64,000 bases of DNA, taken from assembly GCA_029884425.1 (NCBI GenBank), contig JAOUHV010000009.1:1571-65570 (forward strand). Reading direction: 5' to 3'. Each line of letters opens with the position of its first letter. Position 1 is the first letter of the stretch. The position numbers were made by a program, and so were the translations under genes. Below the pieces are notes generated by a model that searched no databases, was not told where the DNA came from, and was given only the letters and a program-made list of their open reading frames with translations. The stretch comes from Gammaproteobacteria bacterium. GTDB lineage: Bacteria; Pseudomonadota; Gammaproteobacteria; S012-40. Below are positions 37,927 to 59,349 of this stretch, piece by piece.

Positions 37927-39039
37927 TTAACCCGGGACTGGAAGCATAACCAATAACTCGGTGCCATGCACATCATCCGTCACCATCGAAATGTCCCCGT
38001 TTTGTACCAGAGCACTCAATCGCGCCGAATATGTTCCCAGTCCGGTGCCACCTTTTTTCCCTGCCGTAGAGAATTTCTCGAAGAAACACCCCCTCAGCAC
38101 CTCAGGCACCACCCCCTGATTGTGGATACGAACATGCGCCCTACCCCCAACCAGGTCCAGATCAACCTGCACTCCCCCTCCTTCCGGGGACGCTTCCATC
38201 GCGTTCTTCAACAGGTTGGAGAATATGATCTGACACAACATCTCCTCCCCGTATACCTTAAATTCGTCATTTCTTGTAATAACTTTACCCCTGCACAGCA
38301 AATTTACTGTCAGCTTCTTTTCCCGCACATAACGCTGCATCTCGCCAAGGACTGAAAACAGCACCCCCACCAGGTTCACCTGCTCAGGATTTAACCGATA
38401 TTTGCCCATTTCCAGCTTATACATATCCAGTGAGCGGTTAATCATGTTTAACATTCGATAACCTGCGCTGCGTATCTCATTCAGCGCATCTGCCTGGGAA
38501 TCACTCAGCCCTCCCTCCAGCATCAAAATATCCGGATAGGCCAAAATCACGTTGAGCGGACTTTTCAGGTCATGCCGGGTCATTACCTCGACCTGATCAC
38601 GCAATGCTGCCGACTCTTTCAGTCGCTGATTATTCCTTTCCAGCTCCCTCTGAACATCATATAACCGCAGATAATTTCGCACTCGGGCCCGAACAATGGC
38701 CGACTTGACCGGCTTGACCAAGTAATCGATACCACCCGCCAACAAGCCCGTCTCTTCGTCATTTTCATCCGTCAGCGAGGAAACAAACACCACCGGAATA
38801 TCCTTGGTTTGTGGGTTGCGCTTAAGTTCGGCGCAAACTTCGTAGCCACTCATTTCCGGCATCACCACATCCAGCAAAATCAAATCCGGCTGCGGCGTTT
38901 TAGCAGCAAGACTCAGCGCTTTCTGCCCATCCGTCGCAGCGACAATATTGTATTCGTTGCGCAGCACCGAAATAAGCACCTGTATATTGGTGGGAACGTC
39001 ATCGACAATAAGAATCGTTTTACGAGCTTGGTCAGTCAT
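37927..39039 (-). CDS. response-regulator receiver fused to histidine kinase core (REC-HisKA-HATPase)
   Basis: 370 aa. REC domain with a phospho-acceptor Asp in DLILLDVVMPEMSG, then HisKA (H in TRHDLKSPLN) and HATPase_c. No sensor or output domain. Starts 1 nt after the hybrid kinase stop. Confidence 0.8.
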   Translation of the reverse strand: MTDQARKTILIVDDVPTNIQVLISVLRNEYNIVAATDGQKALSLAAKTPQPDLILLDVVMPEMSGYEVCAELKRNPQTKDIPVVFVSSLTDENDEETGLLAGGIDYLVKPVKSAIVRARVRNYLRLYDVQRELERNNQRLKESAALRDQVEVMTRHDLKSPLNVILAYPDILMLEGGLSDSQADALNEIRSAGYRMLNMINRSLDMYKLEMGKYRLNPEQVNLVGVLFSVLGEMQRYVREKKLTVNLLCRGKVITRNDEFKVYGEEMLCQIIFSNLLKNAMEASPEGGGVQVDLDLVGGRAHVRIHNQGVVPEVLRGCFFEKFSTAGKKGGTGLGTYSARLSALVQNGDISMVTDDVHGTELLVMLPVPG

Positions 39040-42000
39040 CTAAGATTCCAGACTACGTTTCAAATTCAGCAATTGTTTCCGTAAACCTTCACTATCAAAT
39101 TCCATCTGGCGGACAACACACAAATTATAGGCGGCGAAATATCTGCTGCCCTTTAGCAAATAGCCGACACCATTGAGCTTTTCTTCAACAGCGACGACAT
39201 CCTTGTCTATTACCCGCTCAATTTCTGCGATCATTTCCCTGACCTTATTCCTATCACCTTCTGCTAACTCAGCAGAATGCTCGGCATCCGACGATCGCTG
39301 CAGACTTTTCAACCCCAAGAGCACCCTTTCCAGCTCCAGATCAAATCGCCCGATCACCTCCGGCAACCCTACCTGATCTGAGCCGATTGCTTTTTCCAGC
39401 ATCGCTGCTGCCACAAACAAACTTGTCATTCCCAAATTACCGGCCACGCCTTTCACGTTATGCACTATACCCTTGGCCTCGCTATATCGCCCACGTTCAA
39501 TAAGCGAGTTTATTTCACTCATAACATTCACATGATGAGCAAAAAACTGCGCTAACAACCGACGATATAACGCTGCATTGTTTGCCACATTGGCCAAACC
39601 AGCAGCGTAATCCATCCCTGGCAACTCAATAATTTCGTCGTCATCGCCGCCATCCGTAACGTTTGGCGCAGCATCATCACCATACGACCGTTCTGGCAAC
39701 CACGCTTCAAGTACCGCATATAATTCAGCCGCAACAATCGGCTTGGTCACATGTTCGCACATACCCGCAGCCAACGATTTATCTTTATCGCCATCCATCG
39801 CATGCGCTGTCATCGCCACAATCGGGATATGGCAATATTCAGACTGATCCAGAATATATCTGGCAGCATCAAGCCCGGAAACCTGGGGCATTTGAATATC
39901 CATCAAAATTAAATCTATTTCGTGTTGACGCAGAGATTCATACGCGACCAGTGCAGAATCCGCCAAAAACACATTCGCCCCCTTGGTTCGCAACAACTCT
40001 TCTGCTACCTGCAGATTTATCGAATTATCATCAACAACCAATATTCTAGAACCTCGAATATTTGGATAGTCTTTTTCTTCACGCACAGGAAACTTGTAAT
40101 CTCTTATCGCTTGCCTTTGAATTTTGGCAACTCCAAATAATGCTAAGTTCAAAGATGCATACAGGGAATTAGGGGTATATGGTTTTACCAGCACACCATT
40201 GGCTCCGGATACCAAGCATTTGTCGCGCAATCGATCATCGCCATATGGGACAGTCACCAATATCTTTGACTCTGCAGATTTCTCACCAGCTCTGGCGCGT
40301 AATTTATTAACAATCGGGATTCCCTGCTTTTCCACGTCAACAACATCAACCAAAATTAAGACATGACTTTCCAAGTCCAAAATATTTAATTCGTTTACAT
40401 CACTGACTACATCGCAACCAACACCAAGTCGCCGAAGTGCTTTGCGCATAATCTCTGCGGAAGACTGCTGATAGCTAATCAGCAACACCCTCTGTCCAGC
40501 CATATGTGCAGTTTTGTCTTCTGACTCATCAGATTGCACGTCGACATCCAGCCTTACTGGAATATCGACTTTAAATATTGAACCTTCTCCCGACTTACTA
40601 TCCACCGAAATCGTTCCGCCCATCAATTCAACCAGGCTTTTACTAATCGCCAGCCCCAACCCCGTCCCTCCAAACCGACGAGATATTGAACCATCAACCT
40701 GAGTAAAACTCTTGAACAATTTCCCAGTTTCCATGTCACTCATACCAATGCCTGTATCACTGACGGAAAACGTCATCCAACACTCCCCATCTGCACATCC
40801 ATGCTGCGATACAGACAGAATCACCTCTCCTTTCTCGGTAAACTTTATCGCATTATTGATAAGATTAATCAGCACCTGTTTGAGCCGGAGAGAGTCAACA
40901 TAAATAACCCTTGGAACATCTGGACTAACATCTAAAAGAAACTCGATCTCTTTGCCTTTCAGCTTAAACACCGACAACATAACCAGCTCATCAAAAAACT
41001 CGTCGAGACTGCATTGATGCTCATCCAACTCCATTTTGGACGCCTCTATTTTTGAGAAATCCAGCACATCATCTAGAAGTGTCAATAAATTCTTTCCTGA
41101 AACCTCAATTTTGTTCAGATAATCCTTGATTCGCGAAGATGCATCCCCCTCTTTGGCTAAATACGCCAGATTAATAACAGCATTTAGCGGCGTTCTTATC
41201 TCATGACTTATATTCGCCAAAAACTCCGACTTTGCCTGCGTTGCTTTTTCAGCGACTTCTTTGGCCCTGATCAATTCAATTTCAACCTGTTTGCGCTCGG
41301 TGATATCCTTCGACACCCCCATCAGCATACTCATCTGACCATCGTTGGACGCCCCAAACAACGCAACAGTTTCCAAATATCTGATTTCACCGGAGGGTCG
41401 AATAATTCGGTGCTCAACACGAAAAGGGGTCTCGTTGAGAATGCTCGATTGCAAGGCATCTGCCAGCAGGTCCGCGTCATTCGGATGTATTCTTTGCATA
41501 ATTTCTTCAAAAGTCACCGTCCACGACTGCCGCTTTAAACCAAAAATACGGTACATCTCATCAGACCACTGCAACTCATTGGTCACAACATTAAGCAACC
41601 AGCTCCCCACATGACCAATTCTCTGCGCTTGCGCCAACTGATACTCACGATTTTTTAATTGCTCTTTTGTATCGCTGACACTATCCAGCATGGAATTTAG
41701 CCCGGCGGAAATCGTGGCAAGTTCATCCTGTCCAGCCAGATCAGATCGAGTTCGCTCTTCGCCATTTTCTATACGCCGCAGCGTTCCCAGCAGCGCCTCC
41801 ACCCTCCTGGTAAAAACATAATGAAAAACAAACATCAACAACACCAATGCCAGCACTGTCCCCATCAAATGTTCCAGCACCTGCTGCAATGCCAGTTTAT
41901 TTGCTCCCTTAAGCTGCTTGGAAATATCTATTTGATGAATGAGCACACCGCACTGTGCTTTCAGTGCAACATTACTCGCCAGTTCGCCGCTACAGACGCG

Positions 42001-42435
42001 AACATATCCCACCATGCCATTTTTATTGCCTTGAACGAGCTCTTCAACGACAGCGATTTGTTGACCGCTCAAAATTGACAAAACAACATTTTCATCAAAG
42101 CGTTGATCAATGACTCTCCATTGACTCCCAACATACGCCAGCCGGGTTGAGGAAATGATGGCGCCACTTGCATCGGTCAAAATACTGATATCGTGACCTT
42201 CTTTCGTTGCCAGCGAAGCGATATACAGTTTTATTGCTCCCAAGTCTCCTGTTCTCAGCAATACTTCGGTTGCTTCCTGTATGGAGCTCAAATTTGATCG
42301 CAAATCATTCAGCGCCGCCTGTCTTATTTGGCTTGAGGCACTTTCAACAGCACGTAGATAATTAAATACGCCCGCAATAATTGCCAGCAACAGCATCGTA
42401 ATGGGAATGAAGTGTTTTATTTTTAACTGATACAC
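39040..42435 (-). CDS. hybrid sensor histidine kinase (periplasmic sensor-HAMP-PAS-HisKA-HATPase-REC-REC-Hpt)
   Basis: 1131 aa. Two TM helices bracket a ~170-aa periplasmic region. Then HAMP, a PAS domain, HisKA (ISHEIRTPLNAVINLAYL), HATPase_c, one degenerate and one intact receiver (ILVVDDNSINL..DLILMDIQMP) and a C-terminal Hpt (HNVKGVAGNLGM). Confidence 0.85.
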   Translation of the reverse strand: MYQLKIKHFIPITMLLLAIIAGVFNYLRAVESASSQIRQAALNDLRSNLSSIQEATEVLLRTGDLGAIKLYIASLATKEGHDISILTDASGAIISSTRLAYVGSQWRVIDQRFDENVVLSILSGQQIAVVEELVQGNKNGMVGYVRVCSGELASNVALKAQCGVLIHQIDISKQLKGANKLALQQVLEHLMGTVLALVLLMFVFHYVFTRRVEALLGTLRRIENGEERTRSDLAGQDELATISAGLNSMLDSVSDTKEQLKNREYQLAQAQRIGHVGSWLLNVVTNELQWSDEMYRIFGLKRQSWTVTFEEIMQRIHPNDADLLADALQSSILNETPFRVEHRIIRPSGEIRYLETVALFGASNDGQMSMLMGVSKDITERKQVEIELIRAKEVAEKATQAKSEFLANISHEIRTPLNAVINLAYLAKEGDASSRIKDYLNKIEVSGKNLLTLLDDVLDFSKIEASKMELDEHQCSLDEFFDELVMLSVFKLKGKEIEFLLDVSPDVPRVIYVDSLRLKQVLINLINNAIKFTEKGEVILSVSQHGCADGECWMTFSVSDTGIGMSDMETGKLFKSFTQVDGSISRRFGGTGLGLAISKSLVELMGGTISVDSKSGEGSIFKVDIPVRLDVDVQSDESEDKTAHMAGQRVLLISYQQSSAEIMRKALRRLGVGCDVVSDVNELNILDLESHVLILVDVVDVEKQGIPIVNKLRARAGEKSAESKILVTVPYGDDRLRDKCLVSGANGVLVKPYTPNSLYASLNLALFGVAKIQRQAIRDYKFPVREEKDYPNIRGSRILVVDDNSINLQVAEELLRTKGANVFLADSALVAYESLRQHEIDLILMDIQMPQVSGLDAARYILDQSEYCHIPIVAMTAHAMDGDKDKSLAAGMCEHVTKPIVAAELYAVLEAWLPERSYGDDAAPNVTDGGDDDEIIELPGMDYAAGLANVANNAALYRRLLAQFFAHHVNVMSEINSLIERGRYSEAKGIVHNVKGVAGNLGMTSLFVAAAMLEKAIGSDQVGLPEVIGRFDLELERVLLGLKSLQRSSDAEHSAELAEGDRNKVREMIAEIERVIDKDVVAVEEKLNGVGYLLKGSRYFAAYNLCVVRQMEFDSEGLRKQLLNLKRSLES

Positions 42436-42442
42436 TGGAAAA

Positions 42443-43387
42443 TCACTTCACGTAGTCGTTATTCAACAACTGCACAGGATCAAAATTTGTCTTTAACAAA
42501 TCATGATTACGCATCGTTTTTGCCAAACCACGCAAACTTTCATACAAATGGCTATCATCACCACTCAACAGCGCATTGGTGCGCTTCCTGTCAGGCAAGA
42601 TCATGCCATCAAAACTGGCCAATACTGCTGCCTCGCCAACATGCATTCGCTCGTTGATAATCCGAGCTGCCCCCACCTTATCGGAGTCAAATGTGGCCAA
42701 TGATAGGTACCATCCATCAACCAAATCTTTCACCACTTCAGGATGTGTCGCTAAATATTTTTCTGTCACCACCAGCACATCGACAATTTCACCCGGAATA
42801 TCTGCCGAAGAAAATATTTGCGCCGCACCATTTCTGATCAGTTTGGTCTTTGCTGGCTCGTATGTCACTACAGCATCAATACCGCCATCGGTAAACACTG
42901 TCTCGTGCATGGTACTACTCAGCCGCACGCTTCTTATATCCGCCAAACTCAATCCATTTATTTCCAGCGCACGTGCCAGCAGATACTGAGCCAACACCGA
43001 GCCCTCGTTCGCCACCCTTTTGCCCTTCAGGTCTTTCACACTACGAATACCTTGGCGCGCGAGGATAACGTCACCGCCTTCCGAAATATTTATCACCAAC
43101 ACGACTTTAATAGGTACGCCAACCTCTTTGATCTTAAGCACCTCATCCATGGTCAGTGTGGCTGCCTGAACAGAGCCATTGATCAAGGCACGCACCGCCC
43201 CCGCCGGGACGGGATACTCCACAAAGGTAATTTCTGAATTATTAAAATGGCCATGGCGTTTGCCCAAAAATAGCGGCTCATAGCCAGGCCACAGAGAGGT
43301 CCCCACTTTCAGCGTTTCCACCGATTCGCCCTCGCAACCGGTCAGCAGCACTGCGAATACAATCACGAGTTTGTACAGTCGCCCCAT
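42443..43387 (-). CDS. periplasmic solute-binding lipoprotein (NMT1/SsuA/TauA-like)
   Basis: 314 aa. Lipobox LLTGC and a type-II periplasmic binding fold resembling sulfonate/nitrate-family binding proteins. First gene of a three-gene minus-strand operon with the two kinases. Confidence 0.7.
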   Translation of the reverse strand: MGRLYKLVIVFAVLLTGCEGESVETLKVGTSLWPGYEPLFLGKRHGHFNNSEITFVEYPVPAGAVRALINGSVQAATLTMDEVLKIKEVGVPIKVVLVINISEGGDVILARQGIRSVKDLKGKRVANEGSVLAQYLLARALEINGLSLADIRSVRLSSTMHETVFTDGGIDAVVTYEPAKTKLIRNGAAQIFSSADIPGEIVDVLVVTEKYLATHPEVVKDLVDGWYLSLATFDSDKVGAARIINERMHVGEAAVLASFDGMILPDRKRTNALLSGDDSHLYESLRGLAKTMRNHDLLKTNFDPVQLLNNDYVK

Positions 43388-43606
43388 GCCCCATCTCCTT
43401 GGTTTTTCCGGTCTTCTCTTCTGTCTTCCATCACTGATCAGCTTCCACCGATTTGCTGCATATATGGCTCCAGAATCCCACTCTCTGGCCCAAACAGTTC
43501 ACAATATCTTAATCTAAGCAAAACACTAGGGTATTTTTTTTCGGCACAATTTTCTGTATAGTAGACGTTTCAGATATTGACCCCATATCCAAAGAGGAAG
43601 TACCCA

Positions 43607-43744
43607 AATGAACGTTGACCAACACTTGAAAGTAGCCCAGTGGCACATCGAGCAGGCTCGCCTGCACGCAACCAAACAACACTCTTGCGGCTGCCCAATT
43701 AGCCCAGAGTACCAGCGCATCATCGACGAAGTCGAGAGCGGTAA
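43607..43744 (+). CDS. small hypothetical protein (45 aa, C-x-C)
   Basis: ATG preceded by AGAGGA at a 9-nt spacing. Encodes MNVDQHLKVAQWHIEQARLHATKQHSCGCPISPEYQRIIDEVESG. Tandem intrinsic terminators follow. It is below the ORF-track size cutoff. Confidence 0.3.
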
Positions 43745-43796
43745 GATTATGGAAGAGCTGGTTTGCAAAACCGGTAAGTAATCGCCTTCCACTGGC

Positions 43797-43829
43797 TGAA
43801 AAAAACCGCTCCAATGAGCGGTTTTTTTT
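43797..43829. terminator. intrinsic terminator (bidirectional)
   Basis: A-run, CCGCTC-caat-GAGCGG, then T8. Confidence 0.7.
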
Positions 43830-43844
43830 CGCCTGAGTTTAGGC

Positions 43845-43877
43845 CAAAAAAAAGCCCGCAACTATGCGGGCTTTTTT
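43845..43877. terminator. intrinsic terminator (bidirectional; terminates the EF-G paralogue on the minus strand)
   Basis: A8-GCCCGCA-acta-TGCGGGC-T6, 20 nt beyond the fusA-like stop at 43897. Confidence 0.75.
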
Positions 43878-43896
43878 CTCAAACGGGAAGCAAACG

Positions 43897-45987
43897 TTAT
43901 TTCTTAGCTGCTGCTTCGCGCTCTTTGGTTTCCTTGATAACGGCTTCAGCCACGTTGTTCGGGCATGGAGAATAACGCGCGAACTCCATGGAGAACTGAC
44001 CACGACCAGAAGTCATGGTACGCAGATCACCGATGTAACCGAACATTTCAGACAGTGGAGCTTCGGCCTTGATACGAACACCCGTAGATGCAGTATCCTG
44101 ACCCAGGATCATGCCGCGACGGCGGTTCAAGTCACCGATAACGTCACCTACGTGATCGTCTGGGGTAAACACGTCAACCTTCATGATCGGCTCCAGCAAC
44201 TGCGGGCCGGCCTTAGGCAAAGACTGGCGGTAAGCAGCGCGGGCAGCGATTTCGTAAGCGATCGCAGAAGAGTCAACCGCGTGGTAGCTACCGTCTGTCA
44301 GAGCAACCTTAACGTCCAAGCAGGGGAAGCCCGCCAGAACACCTTTGACCATGGACTCTCTGAAGCCCTTTTCAACCGCTGGCCAGAATTCGCGAGGTAC
44401 GTTACCACCGGTAACCTTGGACGCAAATTCAAAACCGCTGTTTGGCTCACCTGGCTCAATGGTGTAGTCAATTTTCGCAAACTGACCAGAACCACCGGTT
44501 TGCTTCTTGTGGGTGTAGCTGTCGTTAATTTTCTTGGTGATGGTTTCGCGGTAGGCAACCTGCGGCTTACCAACCACTACGTCTACACCATGGGTACGAC
44601 GCAAAATGTCGACCTTGATGTCCAGATGCAATTCGCCCATGCCCTTGATGATGGTTTCGCCTGAATCCTGGTCAGTTTCAACGCGGAAGGAAGGATCTTC
44701 CTGAACCATCTTGCCAATGGCGATACCCAGTTTCTCGGCAGCGCCCTTGTCTTTCGGAGCGATGGCGATAGAAATAACTGGCTCTGGGAACACCATCGGT
44801 TCCAGAGTCGCAGGTTTCTTTGGATCCGCCAGTGTGTGACCGGTCTGCACGTTCTTCATACCGATGACTGCAACGATGTCACCCGCCTGGGCGCCATCCA
44901 GTTCGATACGGTCGTTGGCCTGCATCTCTACGATACGGCCGATACGCTCGGTCTTGCCTGTAAAGGTATTCAGTACGGTGTCGCCTTTCTTCAGCGTACC
45001 GGAGTAAACACGGATAAAGGTCAGGGCGCCGAAACGGTCGTCCATGATCTTGAACGCCAGTGCGCGGAACGGGTAGGAAGTATCAACGATCGCGTGACCA
45101 CCGGTCTCGTTACCTTCCAAATCAACTTCAGGCTGTGGATCAACTTCTGTCGGGTTAGGCAGGTAATCAACCACGCCATCCAGCACCAGCTGCACGCCTT
45201 TGTTCTTGAACGAAGAACCACAGAACGTCGGGAAGAAGTCCAACTTGATTGTACCCTTACGGATGCAACGCTTCAGGTCTTCGACAGAAGGCTCTTTACC
45301 TTCCAGGTAGGCTTCCATCAGCTCGTCGTCTTGCTCAACCGCAGTTTCGATCAGCTCGGCGCGGTACTGCTTGGCCTTTTCCAGGTACTCAGCAGGAATC
45401 TCTTCAATCTTGTAGGCCATGGGGTCACCGGAGTCATCCCAGATCCATGCTTTCATGGTCAACAGGTCGATAACGCCAGAAAACTGGTCTTCGATACCGA
45501 TAGGCAGAGTCATTACCACAGGACGTGCGCCCAGGATTTTCTTCACCTGACCAACCACTTTGTAGAAGTCTGCGCCGATACGGTCCAGCTTGTTCACGTA
45601 GATGATACGGGCAACGCGTGAATCGTTCGCATAGCGCCAGTTGGTTTCTGACTGAGGCTCTACACCGCCGGAACCACAGAATACACCGATACCACCGTCC
45701 AGAACTTTCAGGGAGCGGTAAACTTCGATAGTGAAGTCAACGTGTCCAGGGGTGTCGATGACGTTGAAACGGTGACCGTTCCAGAAACAGGAAACCGCCG
45801 CCGACTGAATGGTGATACCACGCTCACGTTCCTGGTCCATGAAGTCTGTGGTAGCCGCGCCATCGTGTACTTCACCCAGCTTATGGATTTTACCGGTCAG
45901 CTTCAGGATACGCTCGGTGGTCGTGGTTTTACCCGCGTCTACGTGAGCAAAAATACCAATGTTTCTGTATTTGCTTAGATCAGTCAT
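43897..45987 (-). CDS. elongation factor G paralogue (EF-G2-like translational GTPase)
   Basis: 696 aa. G1-G4 motifs ([18 protein letters not shown]), EF-G domains II-V. Clearly EF-G-like ([45 protein letters not shown]) but diverged from canonical FusA. Confidence 0.85.
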
Positions 45988-52057: not shown

Positions 52058-52298
52058 CAAGGGACTACGGAGCAAAAATTGCGCGTGAGAATCGGGTACT
52101 TTACCAACCACCCAAACTCTTCGCCGTTATCGCCAGCCCCCCCATACCAACTGAAGCCACAATCGTCCTGTTCACAAAAATTTTACCCGCAGCAATCACT
52201 CACCACCCAGCCAGAATCATTCGTTCCGTCAGCCTGTCTTTTCTGCCTAAAACCAAGGGAATAGCCTCATAAATTGTCACGTTTCCTTTACTATCCCT

Positions 52299-52328
52299 AT
52301 TGGAAAGCCCTCCCTCATCTCTCTATAC
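52299..52328 (+). promoter_or_regulatory. candidate sigma70 promoter of the GRE operon
   Basis: TTGGAA, 18-nt spacer, TATACT. About 45 nt upstream of the GRE start codon. A GAGG Shine-Dalgarno sits 9 nt before the ATG at 52373. Confidence 0.35.
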
Positions 52329-52372
52329 TGGAGGTGAGCCCTTTTCCACCCAAATCTTTGAGGCATCTACTC

Positions 52373-55357
52373 ATGAGTGAATCCCAGCTTGGCCACGGGG
52401 GCATACAGATCGACCTGACGAACCCCGCCAGTAAAACCCACGACTCCCCCAGCCGCGTATTTCCCATCGCCAACGACAATCCAAAGCAGGTCAAAACACT
52501 GCGCGATTTGTCACTGACCGACATCAGCATCAATGATTTCCAAACCGTCAAATGGTGGCGCGAGCGGCTTTTTCTCGACGAAGGAACACCGGAAATTTGC
52601 GATGAATTGCCGCGCTTGCTCACCGAATTCATGCGCGACCCTGCCAATGATGAACTACCGCCTTACCAAAGACGCGCCGAAGCACTGAACTATATTTTCA
52701 GCAAGAAAACACCACTGGTGCGCAAAACAGATTTATTACCCGGTCAAACCACAACCAGTTTTGTTGGCCCAGTAATTTATGCTGACACCATTGGCTATTG
52801 CATCTGGCCAGAATTAAATACCGTCACTCATCGTGCGCAAAATCCGTTCAAAATAAAACCTGAAGTTGCAGAACGCTTAAACAAAGAAATTTTTCCCTAC
52901 TGGTTGCAACGCCTGCCTGTGCAGGAAGTCGCCCGTTATCGCGCCTATGACACCCAACAATATCGCAACGATGGCCGCGACACCGTGGACGGTGGCCATT
53001 ATCACGGCATTCCATCCATCGACCCGCAATTGAAAAAAGCTGCCGGTGAAACACCGACCTGTCAGGCATTGATGGAACGCGTGTCCTTTTTCCTGTCAGA
53101 CAAAGCCACCTGCGTTTCGCACACCGTGCCGGATTTTGCGCGCGTGCTCAAATACGGTCTGAATGGTTTAATTCAACAAGCCAATAACGATATCGCCAAT
53201 TCCGCACTCAGTGATTCGCAACAACAGTTTTTAAAAGGCGTCGTCTGCGTGTTTGAGGGCGCAAAAAACTATGCGCAACATTTGGCGCAAGCTGCCGCCG
53301 AGGCAGGCAATACCGAACTGAGCGCTATCTGCCAGCGCGTACCGGCACAACCTGCACGCACGCTGCATGAAGCCATCACCAGCATCTGGATTTGCTATCA
53401 CCTGTTGCTACAGGAAAATACCAATTTTGGTTTGTCCATTGGTCGTCTTGATCAACTGCTCAATCCGTATTATCTCAGCGATTGGTCACAACTGGGTTCC
53501 GGCCAGGAACGCGACGCCTATACCAAGCACGCCGTAGAGTTGATGTGTCATTTCTTCCTTCGTTGTTCCGATCACGTTCCGCTATCCACCGAAGGTTCTG
53601 AAACCTTGTTCGCCGGCAGCGGTTCCAATCAGGCGCTGACGGTCGGTGGCACACAGGTGGTCGATGGCAAAGTTGTCGATGCCGTTAACGACATGACCTA
53701 CATCATTCTCAAAGCCACGGAATTGCTGGGCATTCGCGACCCGAATGTTCATGCCCGTTATCACAAAGATGTGCATCATCGCGACGCCAGTGGCAATCCT
53801 CTGCCTGCCGAAGTCCACGATGGTTATCTCAAGCGAATTTGTCAGGTCAATATTCTCACTCGCGCCACACCGGCGCTGCATGGCGATGCCGCCGTGGTTG
53901 ATGCCATGGCCAGCTATTACGCGGCTCATGATGGCGTGAGCGCCGATGAGGCACTGGCTGACGCCCACGATTACGCCTCCATCGGCTGCATTGAGCAAAA
54001 TTCAGCAGGTAAACATTACGGCAACACCGGCTCGACCTTGATGGTTTTACCTGCTGTGCTGGAGCTGGCGATGTTTGGCGGCAAACATCGCAGCGACGGC
54101 ATCGCTGCCAATGATCCGAATTTATTTTACGGCGCGAGCGCCTACACCACACCACCGCTCAGCCGAATGAAAACCATGGAAGAGTTCATCGCTGCTTTTC
54201 GTATCCAGCTGGATGAAATGGCCAGACATGCAGTGCAATGCAACAACTATCTGGGGCGCGCCATGGAAGATGTTCGGCCTTCGCCATTTTTGTCTGGCTT
54301 GTTTGTTGGACCAAGTAATTTACCTGGCGGACAAGGTGCCAAGTTCCGCGACGTTGCCGCTGGTGGGGCAAAATACAATTCCGCCGGGGTTGCCATTATC
54401 GGTCTGGCCGATGTCATCGACTCGTTCTGCATTTTTGATCAATTAGTCTTTGGTAAAAAAATCTCAGTCAGCGAATTGCTGTCCGCAATGAACAGCAACT
54501 TTGGTCAGCAAGCGCCCGCCTCAGCAAAAGAAAGCAGCTGGATTCGACGCATTATCCAGCGCATCGTTGCCTGGTTGCGTTTGTCTGACGAACTGCAAAC
54601 GCTGCCTACGCTCAGCGATGAGCGCATCGCACAAATCAACCAGCTGCTGCGCCGCGCACCCAAATATGGCGCCGGCATTGAACAAACACCGGGCAGTGTT
54701 TACGACAATCATCTTGCGGTGAAATACACGCACCTGCTGACCGAAATGATTCATGATACGTTCTACAAATATCGCACCCATCGCGGTGGCCGCTATCTGG
54801 TCGGCTATTGGAGCATGACCAACCATGCCGGCTTTGGCATGCTAACCAAAGCCACGCCCAATGGCCGCCGCGGTGGTCAATCGTTTGCCAGCGGCATCAC
54901 CCCTTGCCCCAACATTGTCAAAGCCAACGGTGATCCGGTAATGATTTTCGATCACATGCTGTCGGTGGCTGAAGTCCGTCCGCAGACGGTGCAAAATGGC
55001 TACACCTACAACCTCAGTCTGACCACTCGCGATGCTGAACATTTTGACGCCGACACCGAACTGTTTTCGCGCTACATGAAAGCCTTCATGGATCATGACG
55101 GTGTATTGGTGCAGCTGTGCGTATCCTCCATTGAGGATTTGCGCGCAGCCCACAAGGCAGCCAATGACGCCGAAGCCATCGGTGCCACGACTGAAGCCAA
55201 ACAGGCGCTGACACCGTTCAAGGATTTAATGATTCGCGTTGCAGGATACTCTGCCTATTTCGTCACTCTCAGCCCGCAAATGCGGCAGGAGATTATCGAT
55301 CGGGCGAACTTCTCACTCGACACAGGCAAAGAAACACACACCGCTTTCAGCGTTTAG
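52373..55357 (+). CDS. glycyl radical enzyme, PFL2 (glycerol dehydratase/CutC-like) class, unknown substrate
   Basis: About 994 aa. C-terminal glycyl-radical loop IRVAGYSAYFVTLSPQMRQEIIDR (Gly codon 55244-55246). Active-site loop SIGCIEQ (Cys 53987-53989, Glu two residues later), which is the C-x-E arrangement of PFL2-class enzymes rather than the PflB Cys-Cys pair. N-terminal region homologous to PFL2 N-termini (RRAEALNYIFSKKTPLVRKTDLLPGQTT) preceded by a ~100-aa extension. Start at MSESQLGHGG; the ORF track begins 33 codons upstream without a Shine-Dalgarno. Confidence 0.85.
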   Translation: MSESQLGHGGIQIDLTNPASKTHDSPSRVFPIANDNPKQVKTLRDLSLTDISINDFQTVKWWRERLFLDEGTPEICDELPRLLTEFMRDPANDELPPYQRRAEALNYIFSKKTPLVRKTDLLPGQTTTSFVGPVIYADTIGYCIWPELNTVTHRAQNPFKIKPEVAERLNKEIFPYWLQRLPVQEVARYRAYDTQQYRNDGRDTVDGGHYHGIPSIDPQLKKAAGETPTCQALMERVSFFLSDKATCVSHTVPDFARVLKYGLNGLIQQANNDIANSALSDSQQQFLKGVVCVFEGAKNYAQHLAQAAAEAGNTELSAICQRVPAQPARTLHEAITSIWICYHLLLQENTNFGLSIGRLDQLLNPYYLSDWSQLGSGQERDAYTKHAVELMCHFFLRCSDHVPLSTEGSETLFAGSGSNQALTVGGTQVVDGKVVDAVNDMTYIILKATELLGIRDPNVHARYHKDVHHRDASGNPLPAEVHDGYLKRICQVNILTRATPALHGDAAVVDAMASYYAAHDGVSADEALADAHDYASIGCIEQNSAGKHYGNTGSTLMVLPAVLELAMFGGKHRSDGIAANDPNLFYGASAYTTPPLSRMKTMEEFIAAFRIQLDEMARHAVQCNNYLGRAMEDVRPSPFLSGLFVGPSNLPGGQGAKFRDVAAGGAKYNSAGVAIIGLADVIDSFCIFDQLVFGKKISVSELLSAMNSNFGQQAPASAKESSWIRRIIQRIVAWLRLSDELQTLPTLSDERIAQINQLLRRAPKYGAGIEQTPGSVYDNHLAVKYTHLLTEMIHDTFYKYRTHRGGRYLVGYWSMTNHAGFGMLTKATPNGRRGGQSFASGITPCPNIVKANGDPVMIFDHMLSVAEVRPQTVQNGYTYNLSLTTRDAEHFDADTELFSRYMKAFMDHDGVLVQLCVSSIEDLRAAHKAANDAEAIGATTEAKQALTPFKDLMIRVAGYSAYFVTLSPQMRQEIIDRANFSLDTGKETHTAFSV

Positions 55358-55366
55358 GAGAATGAT

Positions 55367-56014
55367 ATGCACGCAGGCTTTCCCAATTACAGTCAACATC
55401 TTCATTCGGTATTAACGCTAGGGCGAAATCACGAAAAAATCCCGCAGATTGTCGAAAAACTGGGCGGCCCCATTGTCGCCAAGGGAGTCGCGGCACTGGT
55501 GGAATTTGGTTTTGTGTTCGTCATGCGCGATGCACTGCTAGATCCGGCGCATCGCAATCGTGCCACGCGTTTTTTTGATGACAATTTCGTCATACGCGAC
55601 CCTTACGTCAAGGGTGGCCAGCGCTACTACAACGGCAAATTTTTGCTGCGCACGAAAAAGCCCGGCGACAACATGAATGTTCACATTGAGTTTTGCAAAA
55701 ACCCTGACGCCTTGTTTTGTGATACGCCATTTGGCAAAACCATCAACCCACTGGAAATTGTCACCACCACAACCCTGACAGAAAATCAGGCCCTGGCCAT
55801 TGAACGCAATCCAGACAAAGTCGATTTGGTCATCGCTTTTAAAGACCTGGCCAGCATCATTAATCTGATTGGCAGGGACGAAGTCGATGTCGTCGGTTTG
55901 TTGCTGGAAAATATGGTACAGCTTACCGGCAATGTAGGTCACCTTTTCAAACTTGGCGCAATCGCATGCGAAGTTGAGCGTTTCATTGGCGTCGCCAATC
56001 AGCCGACTCACTGA
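55367..56014 (+). CDS. hypothetical protein co-operonic with the GRE (215 aa)
   Basis: 9 nt after the GRE stop; its own stop overlaps the activase start (ATGA). No Cys-rich Fe-S motif and no recognisable domain. Confidence 0.5.
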   Translation: MHAGFPNYSQHLHSVLTLGRNHEKIPQIVEKLGGPIVAKGVAALVEFGFVFVMRDALLDPAHRNRATRFFDDNFVIRDPYVKGGQRYYNGKFLLRTKKPGDNMNVHIEFCKNPDALFCDTPFGKTINPLEIVTTTTLTENQALAIERNPDKVDLVIAFKDLASIINLIGRDEVDVVGLLLENMVQLTGNVGHLFKLGAIACEVERFIGVANQPTH

Positions 56015-56904
56015 TGAGCATGCAAACCCAGGCATGGATTTTCGACATCAAACGCGATTGCAGCGAGGACGGACCTGGCATACGCACCACAGTTTTTTTC
56101 AAAGGCTGCCCTCTGCAGTGTCAGTGGTGCCAAAACCCGGAAGGTCTGCCCACACCCCATCATTTTCATCCTATCACCGAGCAATGTGCTGAACTGGACA
56201 ATGGCGAGCTGATTGATCTGCAAACGCTGCTGCATCGCGTGCTGATCGACAAACATTTCTTCATCTCCAGCGGCGGCGGGGTAACGGTCTCTGGCGGCGA
56301 AGCAACCCTACAACATGACTTCCTTCACCATTTTTTAAAACAACTCAAAGCCGAAGGCATACACACCTGCCTGGAAACCAGTGGATTCTTCAACTATCGC
56401 CGTTTCAGTGAACAGTTATTGCCCTATCTGGATCTGATTTATTTTGACGTAAAAATTTTCGACGACACCCTCAGCCGCCAATTCACCAAGCAAGGCAGCT
56501 CCCTTATTTTGCAGAATCTGAAAAACCTCAGCCAACAATCCAAGGTCACCGTCATCCCACGAATTCCATTAATCCCTGGTATCACCACCCGCAAAGACAA
56601 TCTTGTTCGCATTGCACAACACCTGCGCCAATTACATTTTTCCACCGCTGTTTTGCTGCCATACAACCCCCTATGGCAGGACAAGCTGGCCAAACTCAAT
56701 ATGCACAGCGAATATCAGCGAAAAACTTTCATGACTGCGGATGAACTACAGGAGTGCCAGGATATTTTCATTTCTGCACTTAACCAAACTTCACAAGCAA
56801 CCAACGATTATCATGGCGTACAAGGAGATCACAATGAACAATCCTTACCTGAGCAGCCACAATTTCCCCTGCCAAAACGAACAAGAGAGGCAACAACTCA
56901 ATAA
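56014..56904 (+). CDS. glycyl-radical enzyme activating enzyme (radical SAM, PflA-type)
   Basis: 296 aa. GIRTTVFFKGCPLQCQWCQNPE (CX3CX2C radical-SAM cluster), SGGGVTVSGGEATLQ and EGIHTCLETSGF motifs near-identical in pattern to E. coli PflA. No CX2CX2CX3C ferredoxin-like insert. Confidence 0.85.
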   Translation: MSMQTQAWIFDIKRDCSEDGPGIRTTVFFKGCPLQCQWCQNPEGLPTPHHFHPITEQCAELDNGELIDLQTLLHRVLIDKHFFISSGGGVTVSGGEATLQHDFLHHFLKQLKAEGIHTCLETSGFFNYRRFSEQLLPYLDLIYFDVKIFDDTLSRQFTKQGSSLILQNLKNLSQQSKVTVIPRIPLIPGITTRKDNLVRIAQHLRQLHFSTAVLLPYNPLWQDKLAKLNMHSEYQRKTFMTADELQECQDIFISALNQTSQATNDYHGVQGDHNEQSLPEQPQFPLPKRTREATTQ

Positions 56905-59317
56905 CAAGCTGCAAGACATTCTCGCGCGTGATGGCCAGGAAAATCCGTTTGCCATGTTCGCCAACTATCAGCGCATCCTTGCTGACAACAACAAAAAAGA
57001 TCAATGGCCCGCCGTTCACAACACCTTGCGCACCTTATTTGAATGCGGCTCTGCTGTTGCCATCGACGGCCCAATGATAGGCATTCCAGTTTCCATTCGT
57101 GACAGCGATTTTTTCCGCGAGCTTGCTCAACAATTCGGCCAACAACGTTCCGCCATCGCCGGACTGGAAGTCATGGCCAGCGCATGGAATGCCACGTTTG
57201 CTGATACGGGCTTGTGGATGGGAAAAACCTTTGAGCCATTGTCTCGCGAACAGGTCCGGGGAATTTGTAATGATGACTCCGTCACCATGGAGACTTATGA
57301 CGCCAGCAAAACACGCATAGGTCGAAATTTTTTCCGCCCACCGGGCAATCCCAATTTAGTTCAAGGCATCGGCCTTCCCGGCCTGCACCGACTATGGCGA
57401 CTGCAGGATAGACCGACCTCCCCCGGCGACCCACGATTCATGGGTGAGATCTTGCCCAAGAATCTGGAAAAAGAGAAAACCATACCTTACACCGAAACCG
57501 GCGGTATTTTTTTGGCTGACATGGGCCAATCAGTTGTGCCGGAAATGCGCAATAAAAAAGTCTATCAGCTCAATTATCGCTGGGATAGCTTGCAGCCCAC
57601 CTACCCGATGACATGTTTGATCGATGAGCTGGTACAAGTCGCCGACGGCATTTATCTAGGTCAACTGGTTTTTGCCACACAACACTTCAACGTAGGCCAG
57701 CTCGACATCTCGTTTTTGGAGCACCACACACCACTCACCCTTGGCGAAAAATATCAACCGCGCAAGCCCGCCAGCTGGTGGCAACGTTTCCTTGATTTTT
57801 TGCTACGTCGCAACAGTGGAAAATTTGTTGATTACGGCTACCAGAACAACGGCTTTTTCTTGATGATGGACCCGGCCTATGCCTCGCAGGTTTATGCCGA
57901 CGATGCGTTTCCACAACTGCGTCCACGTCCCGGTGAAGCAGGCTTCCGCGAGCTGGGCTACGACAAACTCGCCAACGTTGAGGATACGCCTCGCGCACTG
58001 GATGAATGGAAAGACGGCTGGAAGAAGCATGCGGATTTGCGCGCAAAATTCACCACCATGACTCTGGAAACATCGCCCGTGGCCGGCGACAACGCTATCG
58101 TATCGACCCTGCTTCAACCTGACGAAAGCATTTTGCAGATGCTGCAGCGCATCAGCCAGCGCATCTCATCACAAACATCCCACTTCGACAGACTTGAGGA
58201 ATTTGAAAGCCTCAATCGCTTGTTCCGTTGCGGCATCGCACCCACGGTTGTCAACGGCGTATTTCAAAGTGCGTCAGAGAAAAACTATCACGTCCGACTC
58301 AACAGCCAAAACAGTTACGACTGGTATGGTGAGCGCAACCGCATTCAGGGGTTTGACTATTATCACGGCGCCACGCTCAGTTTGCATGGTGGCTTTGGCG
58401 ATAATCTGCGGACGGGGGCATTTGATGACCAGTGGCTGCTGCCCAACACGCTCGCGGCCATGTTGCGCGAGGACAAACTCTATGATCCCAATGTGCTCGA
58501 TATGGTATGGCGCGCCATAGGCAAATATATTTTCCCTTGGGGCGGAAAATCCTTTGAGAAAATTCCGCCGCGCACCCTCAGTATGCTGCTGGACGAAAGT
58601 GATGATCTTGCACAGCGCTATCCCGAACGTGTCGAGCAATTAAAAAATCATCTGGCCAGCGCGCCGCATTATCAACTGACCAAATTTAATGCCCAGCACC
58701 ATTGGGAACCTGGAAAGTATGCTGCGCACTTGTCACATGGCAGCTGGGACAATGGCATGACCGAGCAGGACAAAGCATTCTGGCAGGATCAGGCAGATAA
58801 TCATTGGGTACAGGGATATAACTTGCAGGACAAACGCATTCTCAGCGCCGATGCATTCATGCGCATCGTTGACATGAACTACCGCGTTCCCGATCCGTTG
58901 CTGCAAGCCTACGCAGCGCAAGGACCGTCACCATTCGTACGTCAGGGTTACATGTTCCTGGGCGTTGCCGATCAAACCTCCATTTTGCCAATGAATCATG
59001 GCAACGAGCAGCGCAAGCAAGTGTTCCAGTTCCACTATCGCTATCCCATGATTGGCGGCCCGGCACCGATTGGTTTTTGTCTGGATGAGTTAGTGCAACT
59101 TGCTGACGGTTTGTTTTTGGGGCAGCTGATTTATGCCACACGCTTAACTGAACCGTTCCACTCCTCCGTGCCAGCAGAAAAATATGCCTATCAGTTGTTC
59201 GGTTATTTTCTGCTGCTGGACAACGACTGGGAATCACATCGCCAGGCCATTGGTCTGGATGTGCTGGACGCCAAGCCACAAACGGTTGTCGAACAACTGG
59301 TGGATCTGGTCAGCTAA
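56834..59317 (+). CDS. large uncharacterised protein with internal tandem duplication, last gene of the GRE operon
   Basis: About 827 aa from the ATG at 56834 (AAGGAG Shine-Dalgarno 6 nt upstream), which overlaps the activase 3' end by 71 nt. Alternative starts are 56741 and 56954. Two homologous halves (YQLNYRWDSLQPTYPMTCLIDELVQVADGIYLGQLVFAT..GYQNNGFFLMMD vs FQFHYRYPMIGGPAPIGFCLDELVQLADGLFLGQLIYAT..AYQLFGYFLLLD). No known domain recognised. Confidence 0.55.
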   Translation: MNNPYLSSHNFPCQNEQERQQLNNKLQDILARDGQENPFAMFANYQRILADNNKKDQWPAVHNTLRTLFECGSAVAIDGPMIGIPVSIRDSDFFRELAQQFGQQRSAIAGLEVMASAWNATFADTGLWMGKTFEPLSREQVRGICNDDSVTMETYDASKTRIGRNFFRPPGNPNLVQGIGLPGLHRLWRLQDRPTSPGDPRFMGEILPKNLEKEKTIPYTETGGIFLADMGQSVVPEMRNKKVYQLNYRWDSLQPTYPMTCLIDELVQVADGIYLGQLVFATQHFNVGQLDISFLEHHTPLTLGEKYQPRKPASWWQRFLDFLLRRNSGKFVDYGYQNNGFFLMMDPAYASQVYADDAFPQLRPRPGEAGFRELGYDKLANVEDTPRALDEWKDGWKKHADLRAKFTTMTLETSPVAGDNAIVSTLLQPDESILQMLQRISQRISSQTSHFDRLEEFESLNRLFRCGIAPTVVNGVFQSASEKNYHVRLNSQNSYDWYGERNRIQGFDYYHGATLSLHGGFGDNLRTGAFDDQWLLPNTLAAMLREDKLYDPNVLDMVWRAIGKYIFPWGGKSFEKIPPRTLSMLLDESDDLAQRYPERVEQLKNHLASAPHYQLTKFNAQHHWEPGKYAAHLSHGSWDNGMTEQDKAFWQDQADNHWVQGYNLQDKRILSADAFMRIVDMNYRVPDPLLQAYAAQGPSPFVRQGYMFLGVADQTSILPMNHGNEQRKQVFQFHYRYPMIGGPAPIGFCLDELVQLADGLFLGQLIYATRLTEPFHSSVPAEKYAYQLFGYFLLLDNDWESHRQAIGLDVLDAKPQTVVEQLVDLVS

Positions 59318-59349
59318 AAAAAGGGGCCCGAAAGGGCCCCTGTCTTTTT
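59316..59349. terminator. bidirectional intrinsic terminator ending the GRE operon
   Basis: A7-GGGGCCC-gaaa-GGGCCCC-tgtcTTTTT immediately after the stop at 59317. Confidence 0.8.

Follow-up and report, generated by a model that had tools for sequence, protein, structure and literature searches.

A conserved protein of two paralogous units, from an undescribed domain family, is encoded with a glycyl radical enzyme in several bacterial phyla

The X gene closes a glycyl radical enzyme operon

The window analysed here, a stretch of 64,000 nucleotides from a Gammaproteobacteria bacterium (GenBank assembly GCA_029884425.1, contig JAOUHV010000009.1, positions 1,571 to 65,570), carries a block of plus-strand genes for a glycyl radical enzyme (GRE), a small protein of 215 residues, a radical-SAM GRE activase and a protein of 827 residues, henceforth X (Table 1). 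We find that the X gene is genuine and conserved, that it belongs to an undescribed domain family, possibly with a new fold, and that its product consists of two paralogous units. Judged by its genomic company, X is firmly tied to the GRE system and appears to mark an unstudied anaerobic pathway in several bacterial phyla.

The uninterrupted open reading frame (ORF) of X spans 56741..59317. The original prediction, made from the window's letters alone, had offered three starts within it (56834, 56741 and 56954), all of which exist in the sequence, and had preferred the first. Alignment of homologues shows 22 proteins opening with M-x-x-YLSS-x-NFP, which reads MNNPYLSSHNFP at the ATG at 56834. 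Since these N-termini agree with a Shine-Dalgarno sequence 6 nt ahead of the ATG and with the NCBI record MDH5300550.1, a protein from a metagenome-assembled genome with the 827 residues expected from this position, we assign the start to 56834, in keeping with the earlier preference. Starts at 56741, 56813 and 56954 were rejected on the strength of the homologue N-termini and the Shine-Dalgarno position. The last of these is nevertheless in use in a database, where a 787-residue call of identical sequence (P0001), which shares a 90% cluster with MDH5300550.1, begins at 56954 and thereby loses conserved residues.

The activase stop codon at 56904 makes the overlap with the X ORF 71 nt, exactly as had been predicted. 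Alignments of activase homologues end at residues 217-265, mostly 244-265, of the 296, and the last ~35-45 activase codons, which run into the start of X, are not conserved. Downstream, the next gene is convergent, and a hairpin shortly after the X stop codon is compatible with a terminator for both directions at the end of the operon. The prediction that X is the terminal gene of its operon holds in the window, but at most loci X comes first, directly upstream of the GRE.

Table 1. Features of the X locus (positions in the window; aa, residues; HMM, hidden Markov model)
Feature	Position	Strand	Remarks
Gene for X	56834..59317	+	827 aa; fused pair of paralogous units, undescribed domain family
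N-terminal unit of X, residues 1-395	56834..58018	+	unit HMM maps to residues 6-291 and beyond; A4 hhalign
C-terminal unit of X, residues 396-827	58019..59317	+	three collinear segments of the unit HMM cover residues 398-814
Repeat core quoted in the original prediction, N copy, residues 244-346	57563..57871	+	BLASTP, hhalign
Repeat core quoted in the original prediction, C copy, residues 731-796	59024..59221	+	BLASTP, hhalign
Shine-Dalgarno sequence AAGGAG	56822..56827	+	6 nt before ATG 56834; within the activase ORF; read from the sequence
G+C-rich hairpin with T-runs on both strands	59322..59341		consensus scan only
GRE, PFL2/eliminase type	52274..55357	+	PF02901, E 6e-104; GCIE Cys loop, RVAGYS Gly loop
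215-aa small protein	55367..56014	+	no direct Pfam match; C-terminal part weakly SCP2-like
GRE activase, radical SAM, 296 aa	56014..56904	+	TIGR02494, E 2e-61, aligned only to about residue 253

X consists of two homologous units

The original prediction had recognized X as a tandem duplication of a ~300-residue domain, and three methods confirm it. BLASTP of the N-terminal against the C-terminal half gives a match with an E-value of 6e-12 and 27% identity over ~140 columns, with a 42-residue gap at the very position where the repeat had been quoted with an ellipsis. When the 54-sequence family alignment is split at residue 395 and the two parts are compared with hhalign, residues 211-351 match residues 694-802, the beta-rich C-terminal part of each half, with a probability of 98.9% and an E-value of 1.5e-17. 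Two weaker matches (E 0.002 each), collinear with the first, cover a W-x-G-K-[TS]-F-E segment and an LF-x-CG segment. Finally, an HMM of 292 positions built from distant relatives with a single unit fits X collinearly at residues 6-291 and 398-814, and the unit profile (alignment A4) matches the X family with a probability of 100% and an E-value of 1.9e-42 (hhalign). Because the single-unit HMM covers both halves in collinear fashion, we conclude that the whole unit is duplicated, beyond the stretch quoted earlier, and that X comprises exactly two units, no additional domain being detected.

Both halves of X thus belong, collinearly, to a family of units of ~290 residues that is defined by A4 and its seed HMM, which we call the X-unit. 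The motifs follow one another in a fixed order: LF-x-[CG]G, W-x-GK-x-F, G-x-N-x-F and [NH]YR[WY], then DE-x-V-x-[IL]-x-x-G-[LI]-[YF]-LG-x-L and Y-x-[YF]-x-x-[FG]-[YF]-[FW]-x-L-x-D. In the N-terminal unit we find GPMIGIPVSIRDSD, LWMGKTFEP, RIGRNFF, YQLNYRW and GYQNNGFFLMMD, along with a conserved linker, AFPQLRPRPGE; the C-terminal unit has LFRCG, FPWGGKSFEK, FQFHYRY, CLDELVQLADGLFLGQLIYAT and YQLFGYFLLLD. While minimal relatives need only ~290 residues for a unit, each half of X has ~400, and insertions make up the difference. One of them, in the C-terminal unit, is helical in the full-length structural model and spans approximately residues 579-656.

The X-unit defines an undescribed domain family

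The original prediction could not assign X to any family, and this persists at permissive thresholds. X itself matches no family of Pfam-A or NCBIfam at E <= 0.1, and neither half of X nor any of six distant relatives matches a relevant Pfam or NCBIfam family at E <= 10. Ten further distant relatives gave no match except one weak N-terminal CarboxypepD_reg, and when the family alignment (A2) and the unit alignment (A4) were used as profiles against PDB sequences, nothing was returned at E <= 10. Thus, no confident profile match ties X to a family of unrelated function. We also tried GXWXG (PF14231) and DUF4334 (PF14232), prompted by the W-x-G-K motif and the pattern YR...P..D..V...G.(Y/F)LG, and neither matched at E <= 10.

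An indexed search yielded 362 homologues. Among the 120 of these that were listed, all are 55-60% identical to X at a query coverage of at least 95%, except the identical-sequence P0001; none of the 120 has a Pfam domain and any name given is "hypothetical". The exhaustive HMM search covered 1.84 billion representatives at 50% identity and found only 116 matching proteins. A single one of these represents full-length X, so that the full-length members are all more than 50% identical and fall into one 50% cluster. The other longer matches (250-710 residues) contain one or two units of ~290 residues, and many matches are short fragments.

Within the X family conservation is high, with 177 columns invariant among 54 sequences and a mean column identity of 62%. 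The invariant columns include 14 Arg, 11 Asp, 9 Glu, 7 Asn and 13 Tyr. X is soluble by its sequence, which has no signal peptide, no hydrophobic segment, no CxxC or Fe-S motif and no RVxG; its six Cys residues (13, 71, 145, 261, 466 and 749) are scattered. Several known kinds of protein were considered on this basis. X is not a spare part of the GrcA/YfiD type, which would end in a C-terminal RVxG[FYW], as RVxG is absent throughout and PF01228 does not match; it has no match to SCP2 (PF02036); and it does not qualify as a small accessory subunit of a GRE, that is, a small protein with Cys clusters for [4Fe-4S] or Fe.

Structural models hint at a derived barrel or a new fold

Confident AlphaFold2 models were obtained for full-length X, with a mean predicted local distance difference test score (pLDDT) of 82.6 and a predicted template modelling score (pTM) of 0.62, and for the N-terminal unit (residues 36-362; pLDDT 81.9, pTM 0.83). 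Each modelled unit begins with helices, followed by ~10 beta strands broken by helices. A Foldseek comparison of both models with the PDB, a kind of check that the original prediction had proposed for each half, gave no significant match: nothing fell below E 0.07 for the full-length model or below E 0.25 for the N-terminal unit. The top match of the unit was 4mve_A (Tcur_1030; E 0.25, probability 0.63, template modelling score (TM) 0.53 on the target), itself non-significant, followed by NanoLuc/FABP-like barrels and the lipocalin BcnA, all likewise non-significant.

The modelled unit, whose best matches are these small beta-barrel binders (FABP/NanoLuc-like proteins, BcnA and 4mve), has ~10 strands and a conserved W-x-G-K near an early strand. 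However, the matches remain at E >= 0.25, TM reaches at most 0.53 when scaled to the target and 0.26 when scaled to the query, the X-unit is 2-3x larger and has long helical insertions, and no relation was found at the sequence level. The models hint that the X-unit could be a derived ligand-binding barrel; a new fold is equally possible.

X is linked to a GRE, its activase, a small protein and DUF6765

The genomic neighbourhood of X was compared over 82 loci, 80 of them from one genome per species and 2 added to these (loci and proteins are labelled L and P below). With the window's proteins as tblastn queries, a GRE was found within 10 kb of X at 61 of the 82 loci, an activase at 53 and the 215-residue protein at 31; contig edges cut off many of the others. 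By contrast, the window's other neighbours (an HPP-CBS protein, a Nudix protein, an aminotransferase and a spermidine-synthase-like protein) accompany X at none of the 82. An unsupervised clustering of all ORFs added DUF6765 (PF20551, E 1.6e-110), a protein rich in invariant His and Asp, as a conserved neighbour at 40 loci, and a ~150-residue protein at 17 loci. The latter is the counterpart of the 215-residue protein in a second class of clusters (class B, see below). The original prediction had proposed a co-occurrence analysis with the enzyme and would have been refuted had X not been conserved beside homologous enzymes elsewhere; we observe that it is.

The loci come from Gamma- and Betaproteobacteria, Nitrospirota, Desulfobacterota and Acidobacteriota. 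They include Nitrosomonas, Methylomonas, Crenothrix, Methyloprofundus, Gallionella, Sulfuricella and Sedimenticola, as well as Chromatiaceae, Ectothiorhodospiraceae, Nitrospirota, Desulfobulbaceae/Desulfocapsa, Smithella/Syntrophus, Holophagaceae and Bryobacterales. The commonest gene order is X, GRE, small protein, activase, DUF6765, and in most loci the GRE starts 9-100 nt after the X stop codon. Variants have the order GRE, small protein, activase, DUF6765, X, or carry an inverted cassette, with X either divergent from it or upstream of it; the window shows the GRE-first order minus DUF6765.

X also occurs apart from the GRE. At least seven well-flanked loci have no GRE within ~8-10 kb (L001, L003, L049, L056, L057, L062 and L080), and at L033, L049 and L069 X is paired only with DUF6765, the GRE not being nearby. 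At the loci lacking a GRE, DUF6765 is the only family common to the neighbours of X; in Desulfosarcina ovata the proteins of 335 and 333 residues that adjoin X have no Pfam match.

Two further observations concern these neighbourhoods. In a Sedimenticola metagenome-assembled genome (L002/L016, 1377-2354) a gene with PG_binding_1 and Muramidase domains overlaps the start of X, a hemerythrin gene follows X, and the GRE lies 8 kb from X behind housekeeping genes. Upstream of X-type clusters a cysteine peptidase of the papain family (PF00112) is found repeatedly (L025, 8846-9844; L048, 8999-9919; L086, 1-632); the ORFs that cluster with it come from six loci, and the peptidase turns up again in the distant cluster L086.

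Distant relatives carry the units split or fused

Relatives with one or two units are found in GRE and activase clusters at L083, L085, L087 and L088. At L086 an activase is present but no GRE is recognizable, and at L084 (P0141) both are lacking. Two adjacent genes for single-unit proteins of 316-320 residues are present at L086 and again at L087, one nearer the N-terminal and the other nearer the C-terminal unit of X. Because N-like and C-like units exist there as separate genes, we regard X as a fused heterodimer and the duplication as old.

Units are also joined to other components. In P0195 and P0282, a cluster of two proteins whose contigs measure 18 and 112 kb, the SCP2-like small protein is joined to one X-type unit. 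The neighbours of P0282 include two GREs, an activase, a HEAT-Metallophos protein and an alpha/beta-hydrolase. A Metallophos protein also adjoins the unit gene at L088 (E 1.7e-6), and at L087 the neighbour is a weak match to Zn-phospholipase C (E 5.7e-4). This recurrence of Metallophos and Zn-phospholipase-C-like neighbours suggests that the pathway may include a phosphoester step. In P0218 a GRE fragment is joined to one unit; this protein, a singleton, comes from a contig of 2.7 kb and may have been produced by faulty assembly or gene calling.

As to other features of the relatives, seven (P0144, P0152, P0174, P0182, P0199, P0213 and P0221) have a similar N-terminal segment of ~100 residues, which in P0174 matches CarboxypepD_reg weakly (E 0.0026) and in P0144, P0152 and P0182 has no Pfam match. 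In the metagenomic locus L083 (3951-6901) the GRE beside a single-unit relative is interrupted by a DDE transposase; here the cluster is in decay.

X and its GRE diverge at different rates

The clusters fall into two classes. Class A combines a GRE of ~1000 residues with the 215-residue small protein and class B a GRE of ~824 residues with the 150-residue one, a difference of ~175 residues between the GREs. X is 57.8% identical between the classes and 60-62% within a class, and DUF6765 behaves similarly (51.7% versus 56-58%). The activase falls to 41.3% between classes, compared with 53-56% within, and the GRE to 31.3%, compared with 65-70%. GC[IV]E and RV[AS]GYS are kept in both classes of GRE, which appear catalytically competent and of the eliminase type. 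Taken together with the X/DUF6765 pairs that lack a GRE, the between-class identities indicate that X and DUF6765 behave as one conserved module, paired with two deeply different GRE modules, and that X evolves independently of the GRE. That X is more conserved than the GRE it accompanies suggests that it holds the conserved chemical logic of the pathway.

This decoupling bears on the idea that X serves the GRE itself as a structural subunit, scaffold, chaperone or repair factor, which would bind the enzyme and stabilize, activate or protect its glycyl radical, like the accessory subunits of benzylsuccinate synthase. The short distance from the X stop codon to the GRE start at most loci fits such a role, as does P0218 if its GRE-unit fusion is genuine rather than an artefact of its short contig, and some GREs are known to have accessory subunits that control radical transfer (PMC13450708). 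Yet an obligate interface partner should diverge along with the enzyme, while X retains 58% identity between classes where the GRE retains 31%; X moreover stands without a GRE at the well-flanked loci listed above, it lacks RVxG, CxxC and Fe-S motifs, and known subunits of the accessory kind are small and resemble HiPIP or rubredoxin (PMC13450708). We consider a role of this kind unlikely.

A purely incidental adjacency, with X an unrelated conserved protein or the cargo of a mobile GRE cassette, is more improbable still, to the point of being hardly credible. The loci at which X has no GRE nearby would suit it, and so would the Sedimenticola arrangement, with X beside a muramidase and the GRE 8 kb off. 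Against this stand a linkage that persists over at least four phyla, four gene orders and two deep GRE classes, the existence of split and fused forms of X together with a fusion to the cluster's own small protein, and the failure of any other neighbour of the window to be conserved with X.

The neighbouring genes in the window

The GRE of the window falls far below every NCBIfam equivalog cut-off, and the solved structures closest to it are those of PFL2 (2f3o), glycerol dehydratase (1r8w) and CutC. Its Cys-x-Glu signature is read as that of a 1,2-eliminase. With the PFL2, glycerol-dehydratase and CutC group it shares the RVAGYS Gly loop and the Cys-x-Glu loop GCIE, but it is longer, at ~1000 residues with extra N-terminal sequence, and none of the characterized members of this group comes with X, the SCP2-like protein or DUF6765. 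The ORF listed for it opens with TTG at 52274, and homologue alignments begin at residues 24-42; its true start is probably the ATG at ~52373 (MSESQLG...).

The 215-residue protein is homologous to the ~150-residue small proteins of class-B clusters. SCP2 (PF02036) is matched by 3 of the 10 members of the combined small-protein alignment, with a best E-value of 0.0077. The activases of the cluster come in two forms, one with a Cys-rich ferredoxin-like insert after CX3CX2C (25 of 44 scored) and one without it (19 of 44), as a comparison of L005, L013-L015 and L066 with L011, L017 and L034 illustrates; the activase of the window has no such insert, like PFL-AE.

At the other GRE-first loci (L017, L067, L075 and L076) DUF6765 sits between the activase and X. 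Because it separates the two genes there, the 71-nt overlap of activase and X in the window may be the scar of a DUF6765 deletion. Elsewhere in the window, positions 38001-44000 have a G+C content of 0.445-0.49, compared with ~0.52-0.59 in the remainder, and a strongly negative GC skew, and may be a foreign island.

Discussion

A major question is what X contributes to the pathway. The original prediction had listed a substrate-processing enzyme, a scaffold, and a repair or chaperone factor of the radical enzyme. The 58% versus 31% divergence, the loci that carry X without a GRE and the absence of a glycyl-radical or Fe-S motif from X all disfavour the scaffold, repair and chaperone options, leaving substrate processing or handling as the best fit. 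We therefore favour, with a probability that we put at roughly 45%, the reading that X is a cytoplasmic, cofactor-less fused heterodimer that binds and/or processes a hydrophobic or amphiphilic substrate of the GRE pathway, probably together with DUF6765.

The pathway would consist of a GRE of the Cys/Glu eliminase type, a radical-SAM activase, a weakly SCP2-like protein and, mostly, DUF6765, in addition to X. The likeliest task of X in it would be to bind or process the substrate, not to build or repair the radical enzyme. X and DUF6765 would act as one module that passes the substrate to or from the SCP2-like protein and the GRE, and X would be in physical contact with the SCP2-like protein. 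The substrate itself could be hydrophobic or amphiphilic, possibly bearing a phosphoester, since the SCP2 matches, the barrel-like Foldseek matches and the Metallophos and Zn-phospholipase-C-like neighbours all point this way, and we infer that it is lipid-like.

On this reading X could be either an enzyme or a carrier. Enzymes are the usual fusion partners of SCP2 domains. This tendency, the extreme conservation of X and its many invariant polar residues make us lean toward an enzyme rather than a passive carrier. The alternative is a purely non-catalytic double barrel that would carry a lipid or other hydrophobic ligand between the membrane and the GRE, with the chemistry left to the GRE and DUF6765. 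The faint resemblance of the N-terminal unit to small beta-barrel binders, the pseudo-symmetric architecture of two units, the fusion of a unit to an SCP2-like carrier domain and the lack of cofactor motifs in X would all suit a carrier. Passive lipid carriers usually diverge quickly, however, and strong conservation is atypical of them, whereas X keeps its 177 invariant columns across phyla, many of them Arg, Asp, Glu, Asn and Tyr; the SCP2-like protein, besides, already provides the cluster with a second dedicated carrier. A carrier without catalytic activity thus strikes us as improbable, about as much so as a subunit of the GRE.

Several observations weigh against substrate binding or processing by X and DUF6765. 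No ligand, cofactor site or catalytic motif was found in X. DUF6765 is absent from the whole 64-kb window, has no demonstrated activity and shows no detectable relation to the Zn-phospholipase-C-like neighbour at L087 or to PDB sequences. The 215-residue protein of the window has no SCP2 match of its own, the label deriving from the 3 relatives in 10 with a best E-value of 0.0077. The P0218 fusion would favour direct contact of X with the GRE, and the lipoprotein-like N-termini of the distant relatives P0133, P0156, P0258 and P0259 are hard to square with a cytoplasmic GRE unless their starts are miscalled. Since no relation of DUF6765 to the L087 neighbour or to PDB sequences was found, a phospholipase C-like nature of this protein is no more than a possible reading of its invariant His/Asp pattern.

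A bolder proposal, which we hold to be rather doubtful, is that X and DUF6765 form a self-standing enzyme module of new fold for the oxygen-independent transformation of a membrane-derived amphiphile, to which two unrelated GRE lineages were recruited independently. If true, the amphiphile might be a phospholipid, hopanoid or quinone-type lipid, and the module would represent new anaerobic lipid chemistry in nominally aerobic nitrifiers and methanotrophs (Nitrosomonas, Methylomonas and Crenothrix) and in sulfate reducers at oxic-anoxic interfaces.

Whichever reading holds, the cluster is found in cultured, tractable organisms usually deemed aerobes, namely Nitrosomonas oligotropha Nm45, Nitrosomonas aestuarii Nm36, Methylomonas methanica and Methylomonas fluvii EbB, so the role of an oxygen-sensitive radical enzyme in nitrifiers and methanotrophs is directly testable in those cultures. 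GREs perform some of the hardest anaerobic reactions, and the X locus defines one GRE clade without validated function. X would also add a new domain family, and possibly a new fold, to the databases.

Comparison with known systems

Our literature search found no paper on DUF6765 or on the X/GRE cluster; a paper on benzene activation (PMC13101534) proved to be unrelated to it. According to a 2026 review, whole GRE clades still lack a validated function, and the only GRE accessories that it lists are HiPIP-like and rubredoxin-like small subunits (PMC13450708). Like the accessory subunits HPAD gamma, BSS beta/gamma and MASS beta/gamma/delta (PMC13450708), X is encoded in a GRE operon with the catalytic subunit and the activase, and is kept with a particular GRE clade. 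Unlike these small iron or iron-sulfur proteins, it is 827 residues long, its six Cys are scattered and form no CxxC, its evolution is independent of that of the GRE, and it sometimes occurs with no GRE nearby.

A second comparison is with SCP2-assisted systems such as the SCPx thiolase-SCP2, MFE-2, the alkylsulfatase SdsA1 and UbiJ/UbiT of ubiquinone synthesis, in which the carrier is fused to, or stands beside, a protein that acts on hydrophobic substrates. The X locus resembles them in that the SCP2-like protein is fused to an X-type unit in P0195 and P0282 and is encoded beside the GRE elsewhere; it differs in that the X-unit has no similarity to thiolases, hydratases, sulfatases or Ubi proteins, and in that the SCP2 assignment is weak. 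We conclude that the X/GRE locus is a GRE operon with an accessory set for which we found no precedent, combining a weakly SCP2-like protein and DUF6765 with a large two-unit protein whose domain family has no known relatives.

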